A DNA stretch of 64,000 bases, from NCBI RefSeq assembly GCF_009931435.1, contig NZ_CP043414.1; one strand, 5' to 3'. Below the pieces are notes generated by a model that was not told the origin of the DNA, ran no database searches, and saw nothing but the letters and a program-made list of their open reading frames with translations. This stretch comes from Escherichia coli (GTDB taxonomy: Bacteria; Pseudomonadota; Gammaproteobacteria; Enterobacterales; Enterobacteriaceae). Both the position numbers and the translations under genes were made by a program. Shown here piece by piece: positions 28,288-46,348 of the stretch (the first letter of the stretch is position 1; each line of letters starts with the position of its first letter).

Positions 28288-28371
28288 TTAAAATATCATC
28301 TTAAATACGCCAGTCACCACCAGTAGTCCAATCAGGAAAATAATCAATACAGCCCAGAGTATAATTTTCAT
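28288..28371 (-). CDS. yohP: Small membrane protein YohP (27 aa, MKIILWAVLIIFLIGLLVVTGVFKMIF)
   Basis: Hand-translated minus-strand ORF identical to my recollection of YohP; single transmembrane helix. Confidence 0.7.
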   Translation of the reverse strand: MKIILWAVLIIFLIGLLVVTGVFKMIF

Positions 28372-37950: not shown

Positions 37951-38088
37951 ACGCCGGGCAAAATATGCCCTTTAAGTATTTATCTGATTCTGCAACTGAA
38001 TCCTTCCGCTCAGGCTAACCCCGCCATTATCAACTATGCTTTTCTCTTAATTCGCTGAAAACAACAGTAAAAGAATGAGGAAAGCATC

Positions 38089-39006
38089 ATGCCACTCTCA
38101 AAGCTCTGGGCAGGTTCACTGGTTTTGTTGGCAGCCGTGAGCCTGCCGCTACAGGCGGCTTCCCCCGTTAAAGTCGGTTCGAAAATCGATACCGAAGGCG
38201 CGCTACTCGGCAACATTATTTTGCAAGTGCTGGAAAGCCACGGCGTACCGACGGTGAATAAAGTCCAGTTGGGAACCACGCCGGTGGTGCGCGGGGCGAT
38301 TACTTCCGGTGAACTGGATATCTATCCGGAATATACCGGCAATGGCGCGTTTTTCTTTAAAGATGAAAACGATGCGGCGTGGAAAAATGCCGGGCAAGGC
38401 TACGAGAAAGTCAAAAAGCTCGATGCAGAACAAAACAAGTTAATCTGGCTGACGCCTGCGCCTGCAAATAACACCTGGACCATCGCCGTGCGTCAGGATG
38501 TTGCAGAGAAAAACAAACTCACTTCGCTTGCCGACCTGAGTCGTTATCTGAAAGACGGTGGCACCTTCAAACTGGCGGCCTCAGCAGAGTTTATCGAACG
38601 CGCCGATGCCTTACCCGCTTTTGAAAAAGCCTATGGCTTTAAGCTCAGTCAGGATCAGTTGCTGTCACTGGCCGGTGGCGACACTGCGGTGACAATCAAA
38701 GCTGCTGCCCAGCAAACATCCGGCGTTAATGCGGCGATGGCTTACGGCACCGACGGCCCGGTCGCGGCGCTGGGGCTGCAAACCTTAAGCGATCCGCAAG
38801 GCGTGCAACCTATCTACGCGCCTGCACCAGTGGTGCGTGAATCGGTGTTGAAGGAGTATCCGCAAATGGCACAGTGGCTACAGCCAGTCTTCGCCAGCCT
38901 CGATGCAAAAACATTGCAGCAACTGAATGCCAGCATTGCTGTGGAAGGACTGGATGCCAAAAAAGTGGCTGCCGACTACCTGAAACAAAAAGGGTGGACG
39001 AAGTAA
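38089..39006 (+). CDS. osmF: Periplasmic glycine betaine/osmoprotectant-binding protein OsmF (YehZ)
   Basis: 305-aa ORF with signal peptide; first gene of the yehZYXW ABC operon. Confidence 0.9.
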   Translation: MPLSKLWAGSLVLLAAVSLPLQAASPVKVGSKIDTEGALLGNIILQVLESHGVPTVNKVQLGTTPVVRGAITSGELDIYPEYTGNGAFFFKDENDAAWKNAGQGYEKVKKLDAEQNKLIWLTPAPANNTWTIAVRQDVAEKNKLTSLADLSRYLKDGGTFKLAASAEFIERADALPAFEKAYGFKLSQDQLLSLAGGDTAVTIKAAAQQTSGVNAAMAYGTDGPVAALGLQTLSDPQGVQPIYAPAPVVRESVLKEYPQMAQWLQPVFASLDAKTLQQLNASIAVEGLDAKKVAADYLKQKGWTK

Positions 39007-39012
39007 TTTCCC

Positions 39013-40170
39013 GTGACTTATTTCCGTATTAATCCTGTTCTGGCGCTGCTACTGTTGCTGACGGCAATCGCAGCGGCGCTGCCGTTTATCAGTTACGCGC
39101 CTAATCGTTTAGTCTCGGGTGAGGGGCGTCATCTCTGGCAGCTGTGGCCGCAAACGATCTGGATGCTGGTGGGCGTTGGTTGCGCCTGGCTGACCGCCTG
39201 TTTTATTCCCGGTAAAAAAGGCAGCATTTTTGCACTCATTCTGGCGCAATTCGTCTTCATATTGCTGGTGTGGGGCGCGGGAAAGGCGGCGACACAACTG
39301 GCGCAAAATGGCAGTGCGCTGGCGCGTACCAGCCTCGGCAGTGGTTTCTGGCTGGCTGCGGCGCTGGCATTGCTGGCCTGTAGCGATGCCATCCGCCGAA
39401 TCTCCACGCATCCGCTGTGGCGCTGGTTGTTGCATATGCAGATTGCCATTATTCCGCTGTGGTTGCTGTATTCCGGCGCGCTTAACGATCTCTCGCTAAT
39501 GAAAGAATACGCCAACCGTCAGGATGTATTTAATGACGCGCTGGCGCAACATCTGACGTTGCTGTTTGGTGCGGTGCTGCCTGCGTTAGTGATTGGTGTG
39601 CCGCTGGGCGTCTGGTGCTACTTTTCCACTGCGCGGCAGGGGGCGATTTTTTCTCTGCTGAATGTCATTCAGACCGTGCCTTCGGTGGCGCTCTTTGGCC
39701 TGTTGATTGCGCCGCTTGCCGCGCTGGTTACGGCCTTTCCGTGGCTGGGTAAGCTCGGCATAGCAGGAACCGGAATGACACCCGCACTGATTGCGCTGGT
39801 GCTCTATGCCTTGCTGCCGCTGGTGCGCGGTGTGGTAGTCGGCTTGAACCAGATCCCGCGCGATGTGCTGGAGAGCGCCAGAGCGATGGGCATGAGCGGG
39901 GCGCAGCGATTCCTGCATGTTCAGTTACCGCTGGCGTTACCGGTATTTCTGCGCAGCCTGCGGGTGGTGATGGTGCAAACCGTCGGCATGGCGGTGATTG
40001 CGGCGTTAATCGGCGCAGGTGGTTTTGGTGCGCTGGTTTTCCAGGGGCTGCTAAGCAGTGCCATTGATTTAGTGTTGCTGGGGGTGATCCCGGTAATCGT
40101 ACTGGCGGTGCTGATCGACGCACTGTTCGATCTGGTTATCGCACTGCTGAAGGTGAAAAGTAATGATTGA
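39013..40170 (+). CDS. yehY: ABC transporter permease YehY
   Basis: 385-aa membrane ORF with permease EAA-like loop. Confidence 0.9.
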
Positions 40171-41089
40171 ATTTAGCCATGTCAGCAAACTGTTCGGCAC
40201 ACAAAAAGCCGTTAACGATCTCAATCTCAATTTTCAGGAGGGGAGTTTTTCGGTGCTGATTGGTACATCAGGCTCCGGTAAATCCACCACATTGAAAATG
40301 ATCAACCGTCTGGTAGAGCATGACAGCGGAGTGATCCGCTTTGCCGGAGAAGAAATTCGCTCGCTGCCAGTGCTGGAGTTGCGCCGCCGGATGGGCTATG
40401 CCATTCAATCTATTGGCCTGTTTCCCCACTGGAGCGTGGCGCAAAACATTGCCACTGTGCCGCAATTACAAAAATGGCCTCGGGCGCGGATCGACGACCG
40501 TATTGACGAATTAATGGCGCTACTGGGGCTGGAGCCAAATTTGCGTGAGCGTTATCCGCATCAGCTTTCCGGCGGTCAGCAGCAACGTGTGGGAGTGGCG
40601 CGCGCACTGGCTGCCGATCCGCAAGTCTTATTGATGGATGAACCCTTTGGCGCACTGGACCCGGTAACGCGCGGTGCGTTGCAACAAGAGATGACGCGCA
40701 TTCACCGTTTGCTGGGGCGTACCATTGTGCTGGTCACTCATGATATTGATGAGGCGCTACGGCTGGCAGAACATCTGGTATTGATGGATCACGGTGAAGT
40801 GGTGCAGCAGGGTAATCCTCTGGCGATGCTGACTCGTCCGGCGAATGATTTCGTCCGCCAGTTTTTTGGCCGTAGTGAACTGGGTGTGCGCCTGCTTTCG
40901 TTACGTAGCGTGGCGGATTATGTGCGTCGCGAAGAGCGGGCTGAAGGTGAGGCGCTGGCAGAAGAGATGACGCTACGCGATGCGCTCTCCCTGTTTGTCG
41001 CGCGGGGATGCGAAGTGCTGCCGGTGGTGAACACGCAGGGCCAGCCTTGCGGTACGCTGCATTTTCAGGATCTGCTGGTGGAGGCGTAA
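40163..41089 (+). CDS. yehX: ABC transporter ATPase YehX (with C-terminal CBS-like region)
   Basis: Walker [10 protein letters not shown], signature LSGGQQQRV; 8-nt overlap with yehY. Confidence 0.9.
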
Positions 41090-41093
41090 GCGT

Positions 41094-41825
41094 ATGAAGA
41101 TGTTGCGCGATCCGCTGTTCTGGCTCATTGCTCTGTTTGTGGCACTGATTTTCTGGCTGCCTTACAGCCAGCCGCTGTTTTCTGCCTTGTTCCCACAACT
41201 GCCACGCCCCGTTTATCAGCAAGAAAGTTTTGCTGCTCTGGCACTGGCTCATTTCTGGCTGGTGGGAATTTCGAGTTTGTTTGCGGTGATCATTGGCACA
41301 GGTGCCGGAATTATTGTTACTCGCCCGTGGGGCGCGGAATTTCGCCCACTGGTGGAAACTATTGCCGCCGTTGGGCAGACTTTTCCGCCCGTTGCGGTGC
41401 TGGCGATTGCTGTTCCGGTGATGGGGTTTGGTCAGCAACCGGCGATTATCGCCTTGATCCTGTACGGTGTGCTGCCCGTCCTGCAGGCGACACTTGCCGG
41501 GCTGGGATCGATTGATGCCAGCGTGACAGAAGTTGCTAAGGGTATGGGAATGAGCCGTGGACAGCGACTGCGTAAGGTTGAGCTACCGCTGGCAGCTCCA
41601 GTGATTCTGGCGGGTGTACGAACTTCGGTGATTATCAACATTGGCACGGCGACGATCGCCTCAACGGTAGGGGCCAACACGCTGGGTACGCCCATCATCA
41701 TCGGACTTAGCGGATTTAATACTGCGTATGTGATCCAGGGAGCGTTACTGGTGGCACTGGCGGCGATCATCGCAGACCGCCTGTTTGAAAGGCTGGTGCA
41801 GGCGCTTAGCCAGCACGCAAAATAA
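41094..41825 (+). CDS. yehW: ABC transporter permease YehW
   Basis: 243-aa membrane ORF. Confidence 0.9.
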
Positions 41826-41913
41826 AGGTATAACCTGCGAGCATGACGCCACCAATTCCGCCTAACGCCATAAAAAGGAACAGGGCGATGACCCCAATTT
41901 TAGCTATGCGCAT
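41806..41913 (-). CDS. yohO: Small membrane protein YohO (35 aa, [35 protein letters not shown])
   Basis: Hand-translated minus-strand ORF matching my recollection of YohO; its 3' end overlaps the 3' end of yehW by about 20 nt on the opposite strand. Confidence 0.65.
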
Positions 41914-41972
41914 AATGCACTCCTTATGTTAACGAAAGGATTGTACAGTAAAGCGCATTTGTTAACGAATCA

Positions 41973-42704
41973 TTAAATGCCGAGTGGGAAAATATCATGG
42001 CCTTGTTCCTGCCAACTGGTAAGTTGCTGCTGTTGGGCAGAGGTTCGATTTTCACCGCACCACACCAGCAATGTACGGCCTTCGAACAGTTCAGGGCGTA
42101 GTTGATTGAGCGAGTGGGCGAGGACATCAATGCGCCATCCTTGTTGACTGGCAATCCAGCCCTCTAGCCACAGACGGGTGGTATCCTGAATATTCCAGCC
42201 AACCACCAGCGCATCTTTACCCTGTTTTTTACGTGCCGAAGCCAGACAAATGGCGATGTAGTTGATCAGTACGCCGTCGAGGATCGCCAGCAGCGCCTGG
42301 AGAGTCGGTTGTTGGCACTGAAGCCGTCGGCGCAGAGGAATAAACAGGTGCGTGGTGAGTGTCTGGGCGGGGTAATCCTGACCGCGCTCTTTGATCCACG
42401 TTCGCAGGCTATGCAGATTGCCACTTTGCAGGTAAGTCAGTAATGTTTCTTGCTGATCGCGCCAGCCGTTCTGCACATCAACATTTTCATTACTGAGCAG
42501 CATTTTAACTTTGCTGACCTGCACGCCGTTGTCGATCCAGCGTTTGATCTCGCGGATCCGGTCAATATCGGCATCATTGAACAGCCGATGACCGCCGTCT
42601 GTCCGTTGCGGTTTCAGCAATCCGTAACGCCTCTGCCACGCGCGTAACGTGACAGGGTTAATATCACAAAGCAACGCCACTTCACCAATTGTGTAAAGCG
42701 CCAT
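41973..42704 (-). CDS. mlrA: MerR-family regulator MlrA (csgD activator)
   Basis: N-terminal MerR HTH MALYTIGEVALLCDINPVTLRAWQRRYGLLKPQRTDGGHRLF. Confidence 0.9.
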   Translation of the reverse strand: MALYTIGEVALLCDINPVTLRAWQRRYGLLKPQRTDGGHRLFNDADIDRIREIKRWIDNGVQVSKVKMLLSNENVDVQNGWRDQQETLLTYLQSGNLHSLRTWIKERGQDYPAQTLTTHLFIPLRRRLQCQQPTLQALLAILDGVLINYIAICLASARKKQGKDALVVGWNIQDTTRLWLEGWIASQQGWRIDVLAHSLNQLRPELFEGRTLLVWCGENRTSAQQQQLTSWQEQGHDIFPLGI

Positions 42705-42925
42705 CGTCTCACCCTTGCTCGCGAGGTCCCAGTTTAACTTTAGACGCAGTTTTGCGAACCAGGTAGTTTTGCCCGTTTTTTGTTCATCTATAGGGTGATT
42801 TTATTTTTGCCAGGCGATTTTGAGTGATCGTACTCACGAATTCTCATTTTTCTGCAAGAGTTCAAAGAAAGTTAAACGCAGGCAATGTATGTTACGCGTT
42901 TTAAAGGGAAGTGTGGTTTGCGGGT

Positions 42926-44611
42926 ATGTACGATTTTAATCTGGTGTTGCTGCTGCTTCAGCAGATGTGCGTTTTTTTAGTCATTGCGTGGTTAATGAGT
43001 AAAACGCCATTATTCATACCGTTAATGCAGGTCACGGTTCGTCTGCCGCATAAATTTCTCTGCTACATCGTCTTTTCCATTTTCTGCATCATGGGCACCT
43101 GGTTTGGGCTGCATATTGACGATTCTATTGCCAATACCCGTGCGATAGGCGCGGTAATGGGCGGCTTACTCGGCGGTCCGGTCGTCGGTGGGCTGGTTGG
43201 TCTGACCGGCGGGTTACATCGATATTCGATGGGGGGCATGACCGCGCTAAGTTGCATGATCTCGACCATCGTTGAAGGATTGCTCGGCGGCCTGGTACAC
43301 AGCATCCTGATCCGTCGCGGGCGCACTGATAAAGTCTTTAACCCCATTACCGCCGGTGCCGTCACGTTCGTCGCTGAAATGGTGCAAATGTTGATCATCC
43401 TGGCGATCGCCCGACCTTATGAAGATGCGGTGCGTCTGGTGAGTAATATTGCTGCGCCAATGATGGTCACCAATACCGTCGGCGCGGCGCTGTTTATGCG
43501 TATATTGCTCGATAAACGCGCGATGTTTGAAAAATACACTTCGGCTTTTTCTGCTACTGCGCTGAAAGTGGCTGCCTCGACGGAAGGCATTTTGCGCCAG
43601 GGGTTTAACGAAGTGAACAGCATGAAAGTGGCACAGGTGCTGTATCAGGAGCTGGATATTGGTGCAGTCGCGATTACCGATCGAGAGAAATTGCTGGCCT
43701 TTACCGGAATTGGTGACGACCACCATTTACCCGGCAAACCGATTTCTTCGACTTATACCTTAAAAGCGATTGAAACCGGTGAAGTGGTCTACGCCGATGG
43801 CAACGAAGTGCCTTACCGTTGCTCGTTGCATCCGCAATGCAAACTGGGTTCGACGCTGGTGATTCCGTTGCGTGGTGAAAATCAGCGGGTGATGGGCACC
43901 ATCAAATTGTATGAAGCCAAAAACCGTTTGTTCAGTTCAATCAATCGCACGCTGGGCGAGGGGATTGCGCAATTGCTTTCGGCGCAGATTCTCGCTGGGC
44001 AATATGAGCGGCAAAAAGCGATGCTCACCCAGTCAGAGATCAAACTACTTCACGCCCAGGTGAACCCCCATTTTCTGTTCAATGCGCTTAACACCATTAA
44101 AGCGGTGATCCGCCGCGACAGCGAACAGGCCAGTCAGCTGGTGCAGTATCTTTCCACTTTTTTCCGTAAAAACTTAAAGCGGCCTTCGGAGTTTGTTACT
44201 CTCGCCGACGAAATTGAACATGTGAATGCTTATCTGCAAATTGAAAAGGCGCGCTTCCAGTCGCGGTTGCAGGTCAACATTGCTATTCCGCAAGAATTAT
44301 CCCAGCAGCAATTGCCCGCGTTTACCCTGCAACCGATTGTGGAAAACGCTATTAAACATGGGACATCACAACTGCTCGATACAGGGCGAGTGGAAATCAG
44401 CGCCCGACGTGAGGGGCAACATTTGATGCTGGAGATCGAAGACAATGCTGGTTTGTATCAACCGGTAACCAATGCCAGTGGGCTGGGGATGAATCTGGTG
44501 GATAAGCGTTTACGTGAACGGTTTGGCGATGACTATGGGATAAGCGTCGCCTGTGAGCCTGATAGTTACACCCGAATAACGTTACGACTACCATGGAGGG
44601 ACGAGGCATGA
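42926..44611 (+). CDS. btsS: LytS-type sensor histidine kinase BtsS (YehU)
   Basis: 561-aa product; 5TM-LytS N-terminus, GAF-like region, HisKA_3 (HFLFNAL) and HATPase blocks. Confidence 0.9.
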
Positions 44612-45327
44612 TTAAAGTCTTAATTGTCGATGATGAGCCGTTAGCACGGGAGAACCTGCGCGTATTTTTGCAGGAGCAGAGTGATATTGAAATTGTCGGC
44701 GAGTGTTCAAACGCTGTAGAAGGGATCGGCGCGGTGCATAAACTGCGCCCGGACGTGCTGTTTCTTGATATCCAGATGCCGCGTATTAGCGGTCTGGAAA
44801 TGGTGGGGATGCTCGACCCGGAACATCGTCCGTATATCGTTTTTCTCACCGCGTTTGACGAATACGCCATTAAAGCCTTTGAAGAACATGCATTTGATTA
44901 TCTCCTGAAGCCAATTGATGAAGCGCGGCTGGAGAAAACGCTGGCGCGTTTGCGTCAGGAGCGCAGCAAGCAGGATGTTTCGCTGTTACCGGAAAATCAA
45001 CAGGCGCTGAAATTTATCCCTTGTACGGGGCATAGTCGGATTTATTTGCTGCAAATGAGAGATGTAGCATTTGTCAGCAGTCGGATGAGCGGTGTCTACG
45101 TTACCAGCCACGAAGGGAAAGAAGGTTTTACCGAACTGACTTTGCGCACCCTGGAGAGCCGTACACCACTACTGCGCTGCCATCGTCAGTACCTGGTTAA
45201 CCTCGCGCATTTACAGGAGATTCGTCTGGAAGATAACGGCCAGGCCGAGTTGATTTTACGTAATGGCTTAACTGTTCCGGTCAGCCGCCGCTATCTGAAA
45301 AGTTTAAAAGAGGCGATTGGCCTGTAA
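44608..45327 (+). CDS. btsR: LytTR-family response regulator BtsR (YehT)
   Basis: N-terminus [16 protein letters not shown]; 4-nt overlap with btsS. Confidence 0.9.
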
Positions 45328-45373
45328 AAGACTGCTAAAATGGTTTTTTGCCTCATCAACACCTGAAGGCCTC

Positions 45374-45844
45374 ATGCTAAGTAACGATATTCTGCGCAGC
45401 GTGCGCTACATTTTGAAAGCCAATAATAACGACCTGGTGCGCATTCTGGCGCTGGGTAATGTCGAAGCCACTGCGGAACAGATCGCCGTCTGGCTACGCA
45501 AAGAAGACGAAGAAGGGTTTCAGCGTTGTCCGGACATTGTTCTGTCTTCATTCCTGAATGGCCTGATTTATGAAAAACGTGGCAAGGATGAGTCAGCGCC
45601 GGCACTGGAGCCGGAACGTCGCATTAATAACAACATCGTGCTGAAAAAATTACGTATCGCGTTTTCGCTGAAAACTGATGATATTCTGGCGATCCTTACC
45701 GAACAGCAGTTCCGCGTTTCGATGCCGGAAATTACGGCGATGATGCGTGCACCGGATCATAAAAACTTCCGCGAATGCGGCGATCAATTTTTACGTTATT
45801 TTTTGCGTGGACTGGCAGCGCGCCAGCATGTGAAGAAAAGCTAA
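45374..45844 (+). CDS. yehS: DUF1456 protein YehS
   Basis: 156-aa product starting MLSNDILRSVRYILK. Confidence 0.8.
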   Translation: MLSNDILRSVRYILKANNNDLVRILALGNVEATAEQIAVWLRKEDEEGFQRCPDIVLSSFLNGLIYEKRGKDESAPALEPERRINNNIVLKKLRIAFSLKTDDILAILTEQQFRVSMPEITAMMRAPDHKNFRECGDQFLRYFLRGLAARQHVKKS

Positions 45845-45849
45845 GACGG

Positions 45850-45885
45850 GCATGGCGGCCATGCGAAAAACATGGCCGCCGACAG
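45850..45885. terminator. Bidirectional hairpin (ggcggccat-gcgaaaaac-atggccgcc) between convergent yehS and yehR
   Basis: 9-bp perfect stem seen in sequence. Confidence 0.45.
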
Positions 45886-45886
45886 A

Positions 45887-46348
45887 TTATTTCACTTCTT
45901 TAAAACCAGCGGCTTTCATCACCAGTTCCATTTGCGCCATAGTGATACCTTTTTTGGCATCTTCAGCAGAAACGTTGATACCTGAAATACCCTGCAGGGC
46001 TTTAAAATCAACTTTTTCCATATCGATAGTCACGTTTTCCTGAGCATAAGTATCGGTAAAGGTTAATTTTTCTTCAACGCCAGGGATGTTTTTATATTTG
46101 GCACTTAACGGCTCAAGTGTCTTGGCAGCATCTTCTTTGGTGGTTGCACCAATGGAAGCAAATTGAATTTTGGTTTCAGAAGATTGCTTAAGAACCTTGT
46201 CACCTTTGTAGACATAGGTAATAGCAATTTCAGTACCGTTCAGATTAGCGCTAAATTTCTTCGATTCTTCTTTGTCACCGCAGCCAGCAAGAGAGAAAAC
46301 CAGAACAGATGCAACAACAAGGGAAAACAGCTTATTGAAAGCCTTCAT
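45887..46348 (-). CDS. yehR: Lipoprotein YehR (DUF1307)
   Basis: Signal peptide plus lipobox MKAFNKLFSLVVASVLVFSLAGC. Confidence 0.85.
   Translation of the reverse strand: MKAFNKLFSLVVASVLVFSLAGCGDKEESKKFSANLNGTEIAITYVYKGDKVLKQSSETKIQFASIGATTKEDAAKTLEPLSAKYKNIPGVEEKLTFTDTYAQENVTIDMEKVDFKALQGISGINVSAEDAKKGITMAQMELVMKAAGFKEVK

Follow-up and report, generated by a model that had tools for sequence, protein, structure and literature searches.

The subject of this report is the small-protein gene yohO and its convergent overlap with the transporter gene yehW in a 64,000-nt stretch of Escherichia coli DNA (assembly GCF_009931435.1, contig NZ_CP043414.1), which we refer to as the window and to which all coordinates apply unless another genome is named. 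The yohO coding sequence (CDS) occupies 41806-41913 on the minus strand and consists of 35 codons plus a stop, with an ATG start, on the combined evidence of the open reading frame (ORF) list, RefSeq, NCBIfam and the orthologues. The yehW CDS of 243 codons lies at 41094-41825 on the plus strand, as given by the ORF list, the Pfam family BPD_transp_1 and the RefSeq annotation. The two genes have exactly 20 nt in common (41806-41825), used on both strands. The stop codons, both TAA, are at 41823-41825 for yehW and on the complement of 41806-41808 for yohO, and the shared stretch is decoded as CTT AGC CAG CAC GCA AAA TAA in yehW and as ATT TTG CGT GCT GGC TAA in yohO, where the complement of the yehW stop spans codons 30 and 31. 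An initial annotation of the window, made from the sequence alone, had placed a 35-codon yohO opposite the 3' end of yehW with an overlap of about 20 nt; its placement proved correct to the base, and the overlap is likewise 20 nt in K-12 and in RefSeq genomes.

The feature is already known as yohO (b4542, UPF0387), and databases and papers already cover the gene and its translation as well as the overlaps of the coding sequences and of the transcripts. In K-12 MG1655, yohO lies at 2215657-2215764 (+) and yehW (b2128) at 2215745-2216476 (-), and a K-12 position in this region is converted to a window coordinate by subtracting it from the sum of 41913 and 2215657. The window copy of yohO differs from that of K-12 by one synonymous base, leaving the protein identical, and the RefSeq annotation of E. 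coli N96 holds the pair with an equal 20-nt overlap. Against the NCBIfam equivalog NF010225 ("protein YohO") the window product scores 80.1 bits at a cut-off of 57, with its residues 1-35 aligned to profile positions 1-35. It has the length of 35 amino acids (aa), the basic N-terminal residues and the GGIGGVML(A/V)GY core of this family, and the gene takes the orthologous position, after mlrA and convergent with yehW.

The upstream neighbour, mlrA (41973-42704, minus strand), is read from the same strand as yohO, with its stop codon 59 nt upstream, and its product is identified as MlrA by NCBIfam NF011617 at 550 bits. The gene order in RefSeq is osmF-yehY-yehX-yehW on one strand, with yohO and mlrA on the opposite strand. 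YehW is a permease of the Pfam family BPD_transp_1 and belongs to the osmF-yehYXW betaine transporter operon, in agreement with the initial annotation, which had made yehW part of an osmoprotectant ATP-binding cassette (ABC) transporter. Of 5,426 complete E. coli genomes, 5,423 match the surrounding 1.8-kb region (41000-42800) at 95-99% identity; the highest value in any of them is 98.8%, and the region is thus E. coli-like while identical to none of these genomes. Two GTDB species representatives labelled E. coli (L023 and L040 in our set of loci) are about 90% identical to the window at this locus. A second small protein singled out by the initial annotation, yohP at 28288-28371 (minus strand), is also present where it was said to be, and its 27 aa, MKIILWAVLIIFLIGLLVVTGVFKMIF, are identical to K-12 YohP (b4679). 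Coordinates converted linearly from the neighbourhood of yohO are off by about 217 nt at K-12 yohP, which indicates that an indel distinguishes the window from K-12 at some point in the yohO-yohP interval.

YohO as a translated and conserved small protein

The YohO protein has been detected by top-down mass spectrometry (PMC12529367). It is also cited as a small protein already known to be bound to the membrane (with reference to Hemm 2008) that has coverage in ribosome profiling (Ribo-seq). The initial annotation had described yohO as encoding a small membrane protein and had named a lack of translation in ribosome profiling data as the observation that would tell against it; the published data point the other way on translation, and the description agrees with the product, a single hydrophobic helix that carries the conserved core. 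yohO is best taken as a real, translated gene for a 35-residue single-helix protein of the inner membrane, the data on tagging and membrane location being cited at second hand. The glycine-rich character of the helix suggests that it packs against another membrane helix.

A phmmer search of 1.84 billion representative proteins with YohO returned only 17 matches, which indicates that the family is narrow. Orthologous loci were collected by scanning species-representative genomes with a degenerate DNA pattern that encodes GGI(G/S)GVML(A/V)GY, the core; as this motif came from YohO itself, divergent homologues, and genomes with yehW but without yohO, lie outside the sample. The pattern yielded 113 loci with the core motif in Enterobacteriaceae, Erwinia, Dickeya, Brenneria, Lonsdalea, Affinibrenneria and Sodalis. 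An intact ORF of 34-37 aa is present in 110 of the 113 genomes (34 aa in 7 loci, 35 in 62, 36 in 8 and 37 in 33), every one of the 110 begins with ATG exactly 17 codons 5' of the motif, and a Shine-Dalgarno (SD)-like element is found in 106 of them. Within codons 2-17, which lie outside the search motif, the entropy at the three codon positions is 1.11, 0.57 and 1.54, a pattern that marks yohO as coding sequence, and the ratio of nonsynonymous to synonymous differences per site (pN/pS) relative to E. coli is 0-0.17 across Escherichia, Salmonella and Citrobacter.

These data bear directly on the sceptical reading of yohO as a chance antisense ORF near the end of yehW, and hence an artefact of annotation. 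The ORF is indeed very short and partly overlaps a real gene, and no Pfam family matches YohO. However, the product passes the NCBIfam model NF010225, the length, start codon and SD element are conserved and the variation is biased to third positions across 110 genomes, 88 of the 108 nt lie outside yehW, and detection of the protein is published. The NCBIfam match, the conservation and the published detection together exclude a chance ORF, a reading to which we assign virtually no probability.

Three assembly labels among the orthologous loci look wrong. "Chryseobacterium sp. 18061" (L113) has an Enterobacteriaceae mlrA-yohO-yehW locus in which YohO is the same, residue for residue, as in Citrobacter sp. 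18056 (L109), "C. freundii M-21" (L103) encodes a YohO of the Atlantibacter/Siccibacter type, and a "Proteobacteria" metagenome-assembled genome (L011) is Kosakonia-like at the yohO locus.

Transcription across the overlap

In published Term-seq data (Adams et al. 2021, PMC7815308, supplementary file 1), the 3' end recorded as "primary" for yohO is at MG1655 2215813 (+) and carries a flag for lying antisense to yehW. The corresponding window position is 41757, which is 49 nt past the yohO stop and 69 nt into yehW in antisense orientation, and it bounds a yohO 3' untranslated region (UTR) at 41757-41805 on the minus strand that is antisense to yehW codons. On folding, the 3' end falls 5 nt after the stem of a hairpin, GGCGGUC-UGCGAU-GAUCGCC (41762-41781), that has no U tract. 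Supplementary file 2 of the same study (PMC7815308) lists a bicyclomycin-sensitive Rho termination region at MG1655 2215995 (+), likewise antisense to yehW (score 5.6, p = 9e-16), which converts to about 41575 in the window, some 230 nt past the yohO stop. On this evidence and on the C/G ratio, a region of Rho-dependent termination on the yohO strand inside yehW is placed at 41506-41600 (minus strand), the RNA of 41585-41506 being untranslated, C-rich and G-poor with a C/G ratio of 2.2-2.4. Rho-dependent termination followed by 3' trimming to a protective hairpin is the usual picture for an end such as that of yohO, the trimming step being suggested by the pattern of the two data sets. The Term-seq end 49 nt past the stop implies a stable yohO mRNA that is complementary to the last 69 nt of yehW, and nascent transcripts would be complementary to about 250 nt.

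Transcription antisense to yehW has been observed beyond this study of MG1655. ExcludonFinder reports the convergent yohO-yehW overlap in at least 50% of 58 MG1655 RNA-seq samples (Nucleic Acids Research 2025, PMC12288877, Table 1). In Klebsiella pneumoniae MGH 78578, the legend to Fig. 1C of PMC3536570 describes an antisense transcript against yehW of about 800 nt (2810932-2811731), which was interpreted at the time as a novel antisense RNA; assuming that it originates at yohO, it is probably yohO read-through. The initial annotation had argued that either gene must read into the other. This follows from the coding overlap, is backed by Term-seq for transcription from yohO into yehW, and fits the ExcludonFinder entry for the pair.

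Intrinsic terminators were sought on both strands. Consensus scans of E. coli, Cedecea and an Enterobacter found none between or just beyond yohO and yehW, and in no lineage did a hairpin-plus-U scan turn up a convincing terminator in the interval from the yehW stop to the start of yohO. On the yehW strand, the hairpin-plus-U scan detected no convincing terminator upstream of yohO in 56 of 88 loci, and a universal yehW-strand terminator was rejected, as convincing examples upstream of yohO are confined to a few lineages; clear yehW-strand terminators beyond yohO occur in Cedecea-like genomes, Enterobacter sp. BIGb0383 and Mangrovibacter. A shared bidirectional intrinsic terminator was rejected as well, there being no intergenic space and the hairpins at 41797-41821 and 41762-41781 having no U tract on either strand. 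For the window itself, the osmF-yehYXW operon has a candidate terminator past the start codon of yohO, at 41906-41964 (plus strand), where an imperfect hairpin (-18.4 kcal/mol, z = -2.2) is followed by UUUGUU; an equivalent is present in the Citrobacter freundii group, and the consensus scan gave no match for it in the window. No curated Term-seq 3' end is found on the yehW strand. Within mlrA, 38 nt into the ORF, a terminator-like hairpin with the tail GCGTTGCTTT at 42666-42700 (minus strand) matches the position of a 3' end that published Term-seq maps inside the ORF, MG1655 2214904, and may reflect premature termination or attenuation of mlrA.

At its 5' side, yohO has the SD sequence AAGGAG (41920-41925, minus strand) 6 nt 5' of the ATG and, from comparison of the upstream regions, a predicted -10 box, TACAAT (41940-41945, minus strand), that ends 26 nt before the ATG. 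A -10 hexamer was found in 108 of 110 loci (TATAAT in 70, TACAAT in 20, TATACT in 13 and TAGAAT in 3), and its distance to the ATG is 25-28 nt in 99 of these, among them taxa with no mlrA on the upstream side. Transcription is predicted to start near 41933, which would give a leader some 20 nt long. Several genera whose mlrA-yohO spacer is longer have an intrinsic terminator upstream of the yohO promoter, and together with the conserved -10 box at a fixed distance these terminators argue that yohO is its own transcription unit. The mlrA-yohO interval of E. coli contains no terminator-like site in the scan and no curated Term-seq 3' end. The copies of a perfect 10-nt direct repeat, TTCGTTAACA, flank the yohO -10 box: the proximal copy (41927-41936, minus strand) spans the predicted transcription start, and the distal copy (41960-41969, minus strand) lies 33 nt upstream of the proximal one, 3 nt after the mlrA stop. 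Counted from the yohO ATG, TTAAC is present at -19 in 61 of 108 loci and at about -52 in 69 of 108. The repeats may form an operator; ArcA, OmpR and MlrA were considered as candidate binders on the basis of their consensus sequences, and none fits well. In Shigella, yohO is reported to be down by 2.96 log2 units anaerobically.

A hairpin at 41905-41965 (minus strand) in E. coli (-17.7 kcal/mol, z = -3.8, equalled by none of 200 shuffles) brings the SD and AUG of yohO into pairing with sequence 5' of the predicted yohO start, and could block translation of yohO specifically in RNA that reads through from mlrA. It was rejected as a conserved riboregulator, being restricted to close relatives and lying largely upstream of the predicted start. 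This pairing is also one of the features that might cast yohO as the toxin of a type I toxin-antitoxin-like pair, with its translation held down by the antisense 3' UTR of yehW. A small hydrophobic peptide and antisense transcription across its gene would suit such a system, as would a hairpin able to sequester the SD and AUG in read-through RNA. Yet no Rfam match at E <= 1, and with it no antisense or small RNA family, was found within 38000-46000, and yohO is single-copy, vertically inherited and syntenic across the family. Its strong SD and short leader are unlike those of type I toxins, normal cells contain the protein in detectable amounts (PMC12529367) and, as an indirect hint, a yohO ASKA clone induced with isopropyl β-D-1-thiogalactopyranoside (IPTG) was recovered in a growth-based screen. 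We regard a toxin role as extremely improbable.

Conservation and neighbourhood of the overlap

An orthologue of yehW is the convergent neighbour of yohO in 91 of the 113 loci, and 90 of these 91 show a coding overlap, the length of which is 26 nt in 33 loci, 23 in 7, 20 in 49 and 17 in 1; Sodalis, with 10 nt between the genes, is the only gap. All overlap lengths are 2 modulo 3, which keeps the relative frame constant, and codons 30 and 31 of yohO (TTY, GTY or ATY, then A..) are in every case the place of the complement of the yehW stop. The differences in length come from shifts of the yohO stop and, in the clade of the Klebsiella/Kosakonia type, also from two extra codons that lengthen both tails. 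The loci are phylogenetically non-independent, and the count of 90 in 91 does not amount to 90 independent observations. The comparison suggests that the overlap arose in or before the ancestor of the Enterobacteriaceae and has kept its relative frame since. Inertia suffices to account for such persistence, since undoing the overlap requires a nonsense mutation that fits both frames, or a duplication. Constancy of phase in 90 of 91 loci is a modest addition to what is published, and we did not find it stated in the literature searched.

The sample also holds yohO loci without yehW (among them L026, L065, L115, L038 and L059). In Dickeya, Brenneria, Lonsdalea, Affinibrenneria and a few Enterobacteriaceae, the gene that converges on yohO is bglX, or an idi-like gene that is followed by bglX; in the Erwinia loci examined, neither yehW nor mlrA adjoins yohO and the adjacent genes are on its own strand. 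As bglX lies beside yohO where the operon is absent and just beyond osmF in E. coli, osmF-yehYXW looks like a block that was inserted, or lost, between yohO and bglX. In Brenneria alni (L065, 7530-7549), yohO overlaps a convergent idi/Nudix-like ORF by 20 nt, and the corresponding genes of B. roseae are 35 nt apart.

These arrangements are relevant to the proposal that YohO serves the YehZYXW (OsmF) betaine transporter as an accessory or regulatory subunit, on the model of KdpF with KdpABC or AcrZ with AcrB. Many small E. coli membrane proteins bind transporters, and the frequent adjacency of yohO to yehW, along with a single helix that bears a glycine-rich packing motif, would accord with such a role. 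On the other hand, the two genes are on opposite strands in separate transcription units, and the same YohO core is retained where the neighbour is bglX or idi and yehW is not nearby (Dickeya, Brenneria, Lonsdalea, Erwinia and some Enterobacteriaceae); our literature searches found no interaction data. A subunit function seems to us very improbable, if less so than a toxin.

Interpretation of the overlap and comparison with known systems

Our findings are best accommodated, and in our judgment this is likely, by an overlap that is a tolerated by-product of tight gene packing and is kept in check by Rho. In the proposed sequence of events, yohO, which sits 59 nt 3' of mlrA, would be read from a -10 box of its own, with a short leader and AAGGAG as a strong ribosome-binding site, and would converge on the RpoS-dependent osmF-yehY-yehX-yehW betaine transporter operon. 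In the absence of an intrinsic terminator between the genes, RNA polymerase leaving yohO continues antisense into yehW until Rho stops it about 230 nt past the stop codon, as published Term-seq of E. coli supports, and the RNA would then be trimmed back to the GC hairpin, at a point 49 nt from the stop. In the opposite direction, polymerase that comes off yehW most probably passes over all of yohO, promoter included, before terminating. The two transcripts would thus be complementary over at least 69 nt, and probably over more than 130 nt. The overlap of yohO and yehW is probably not a dedicated regulatory switch, though some dampening of yohO may occur when the osmF operon is strongly transcribed.

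Three lines of evidence lean against a dedicated switch or a strong effect. The normalised entropy at third (synonymous) positions of yehW is flat, at 0.61-0.77 per 20-residue bin and 0.67 at residues 221-240, which indicates that yehW is under no excess synonymous constraint beneath the yohO 3' UTR and its hairpin. osmF is a core RpoS gene, and yehW and mlrA are both RpoS-dependent in one dataset; the two strands would then be co-induced, which argues against strict exclusivity. Finally, yohO keeps its sequence and its promoter in genera that lack the osmF operon.

The principal alternative is a functional convergent excludon, in which transcription of osmF-yehYXW over yohO and its promoter represses YohO while read-through from yohO lowers yehW. 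Promoter occlusion, polymerase collision or cleavage of the duplex by RNase III might be the route, with the result that the cell makes either YohO or the full transporter. In its favour, the pair belongs to the published E. coli "excludome" (PMC12288877), the yohO RNA is antisense to yehW in a stable species (69 nt) and for up to about 230 nt before Rho acts, no terminator separates the genes, the overlap is kept in constant phase across nearly all loci, and Klebsiella has a long RNA antisense to yehW. However, the label of excludon is assigned automatically, as overlapping coding sequences make any co-expression score as one, and genes of both strands (mlrA on that of yohO, and yehW) are RpoS-induced and not obviously mutually exclusive. 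The unremarkable synonymous variation of yehW under the yohO 3' UTR and the retention of yohO with its promoter where the operon is missing weigh against it too. The initial annotation had passed from the overlap to possible antisense interference between transporter and small protein, and it is this step that we would treat as conjecture: the indirect tests do not favour a strong effect, and a regulatory excludon that really operates here, by any of the routes named, is in our view unlikely. A still more doubtful variant holds that the phase-conserved overlap is a selected, family-wide coupling, by which RpoS-driven or osmotic transcription of the operon silences YohO, read-through from yohO tunes yehW, or both. 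If true, it would give YohO a role in the envelope or osmotic response, anti-correlated with the transporter.

Several points count against our preference for a tolerated overlap. The case for the absence of important regulation is argued from indirect evidence, and selection for the overlap would also account for its survival in 90 of 91 loci, through a 6-nt insertion and shifts in the length of yohO. That the operon RNA covers yohO completely in antisense is itself deduced, the yohO transcription start is predicted from conservation, and the start of the Klebsiella antisense RNA at yohO is assumed.

As a discovery the yohO-yehW overlap carries little weight. It is, however, a clean and conserved test case for the regulatory consequences of convergent CDS overlaps, in which a mapped Rho-dependent 3' end is joined to a small protein conserved from Escherichia to Erwinia and Dickeya. 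What this analysis adds is the family-wide constancy of the overlap's phase and the combination of the Term-seq and Rho data, from which the overlap at the RNA level emerges as far longer than 20 nt.

Among known systems, the nearest counterpart is K-12 yohO itself (NF010225), with the same protein, the same 59-nt distance from mlrA, the same convergent 20-nt overlap with yehW and the one synonymous difference. The pair resembles the convergent excludons, first described in Listeria, in being opposite-strand neighbours with overlapping transcripts (a 20-nt CDS overlap, and a 3' end 69 nt inside yehW). It differs from them in that the coding sequences themselves overlap, and not only long UTRs, and the likeness is one of transcript overlap, whereas excludons are defined by consequences such as inverse expression and processing by RNase III; our literature searches found no data for this pair on duplex processing by RNase III or on transcriptional interference revealed by mutation. 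The yohO 3' end is akin to the Rho-terminated, hairpin-trimmed ends of PMC7815308, as it comes close behind a GC hairpin that has no U tract, with a bicyclomycin-sensitive region downstream. As a protein, YohO belongs with the short single-helix membrane proteins of E. coli such as YohP, being under 50 aa, with one hydrophobic helix and a strong SD, and of a size missed by length-filtered ORF calling. In contrast to many of these, it is far more widely conserved, reaching Erwinia and Pectobacteriaceae, and its gene has its 3' end in common with a convergent gene.

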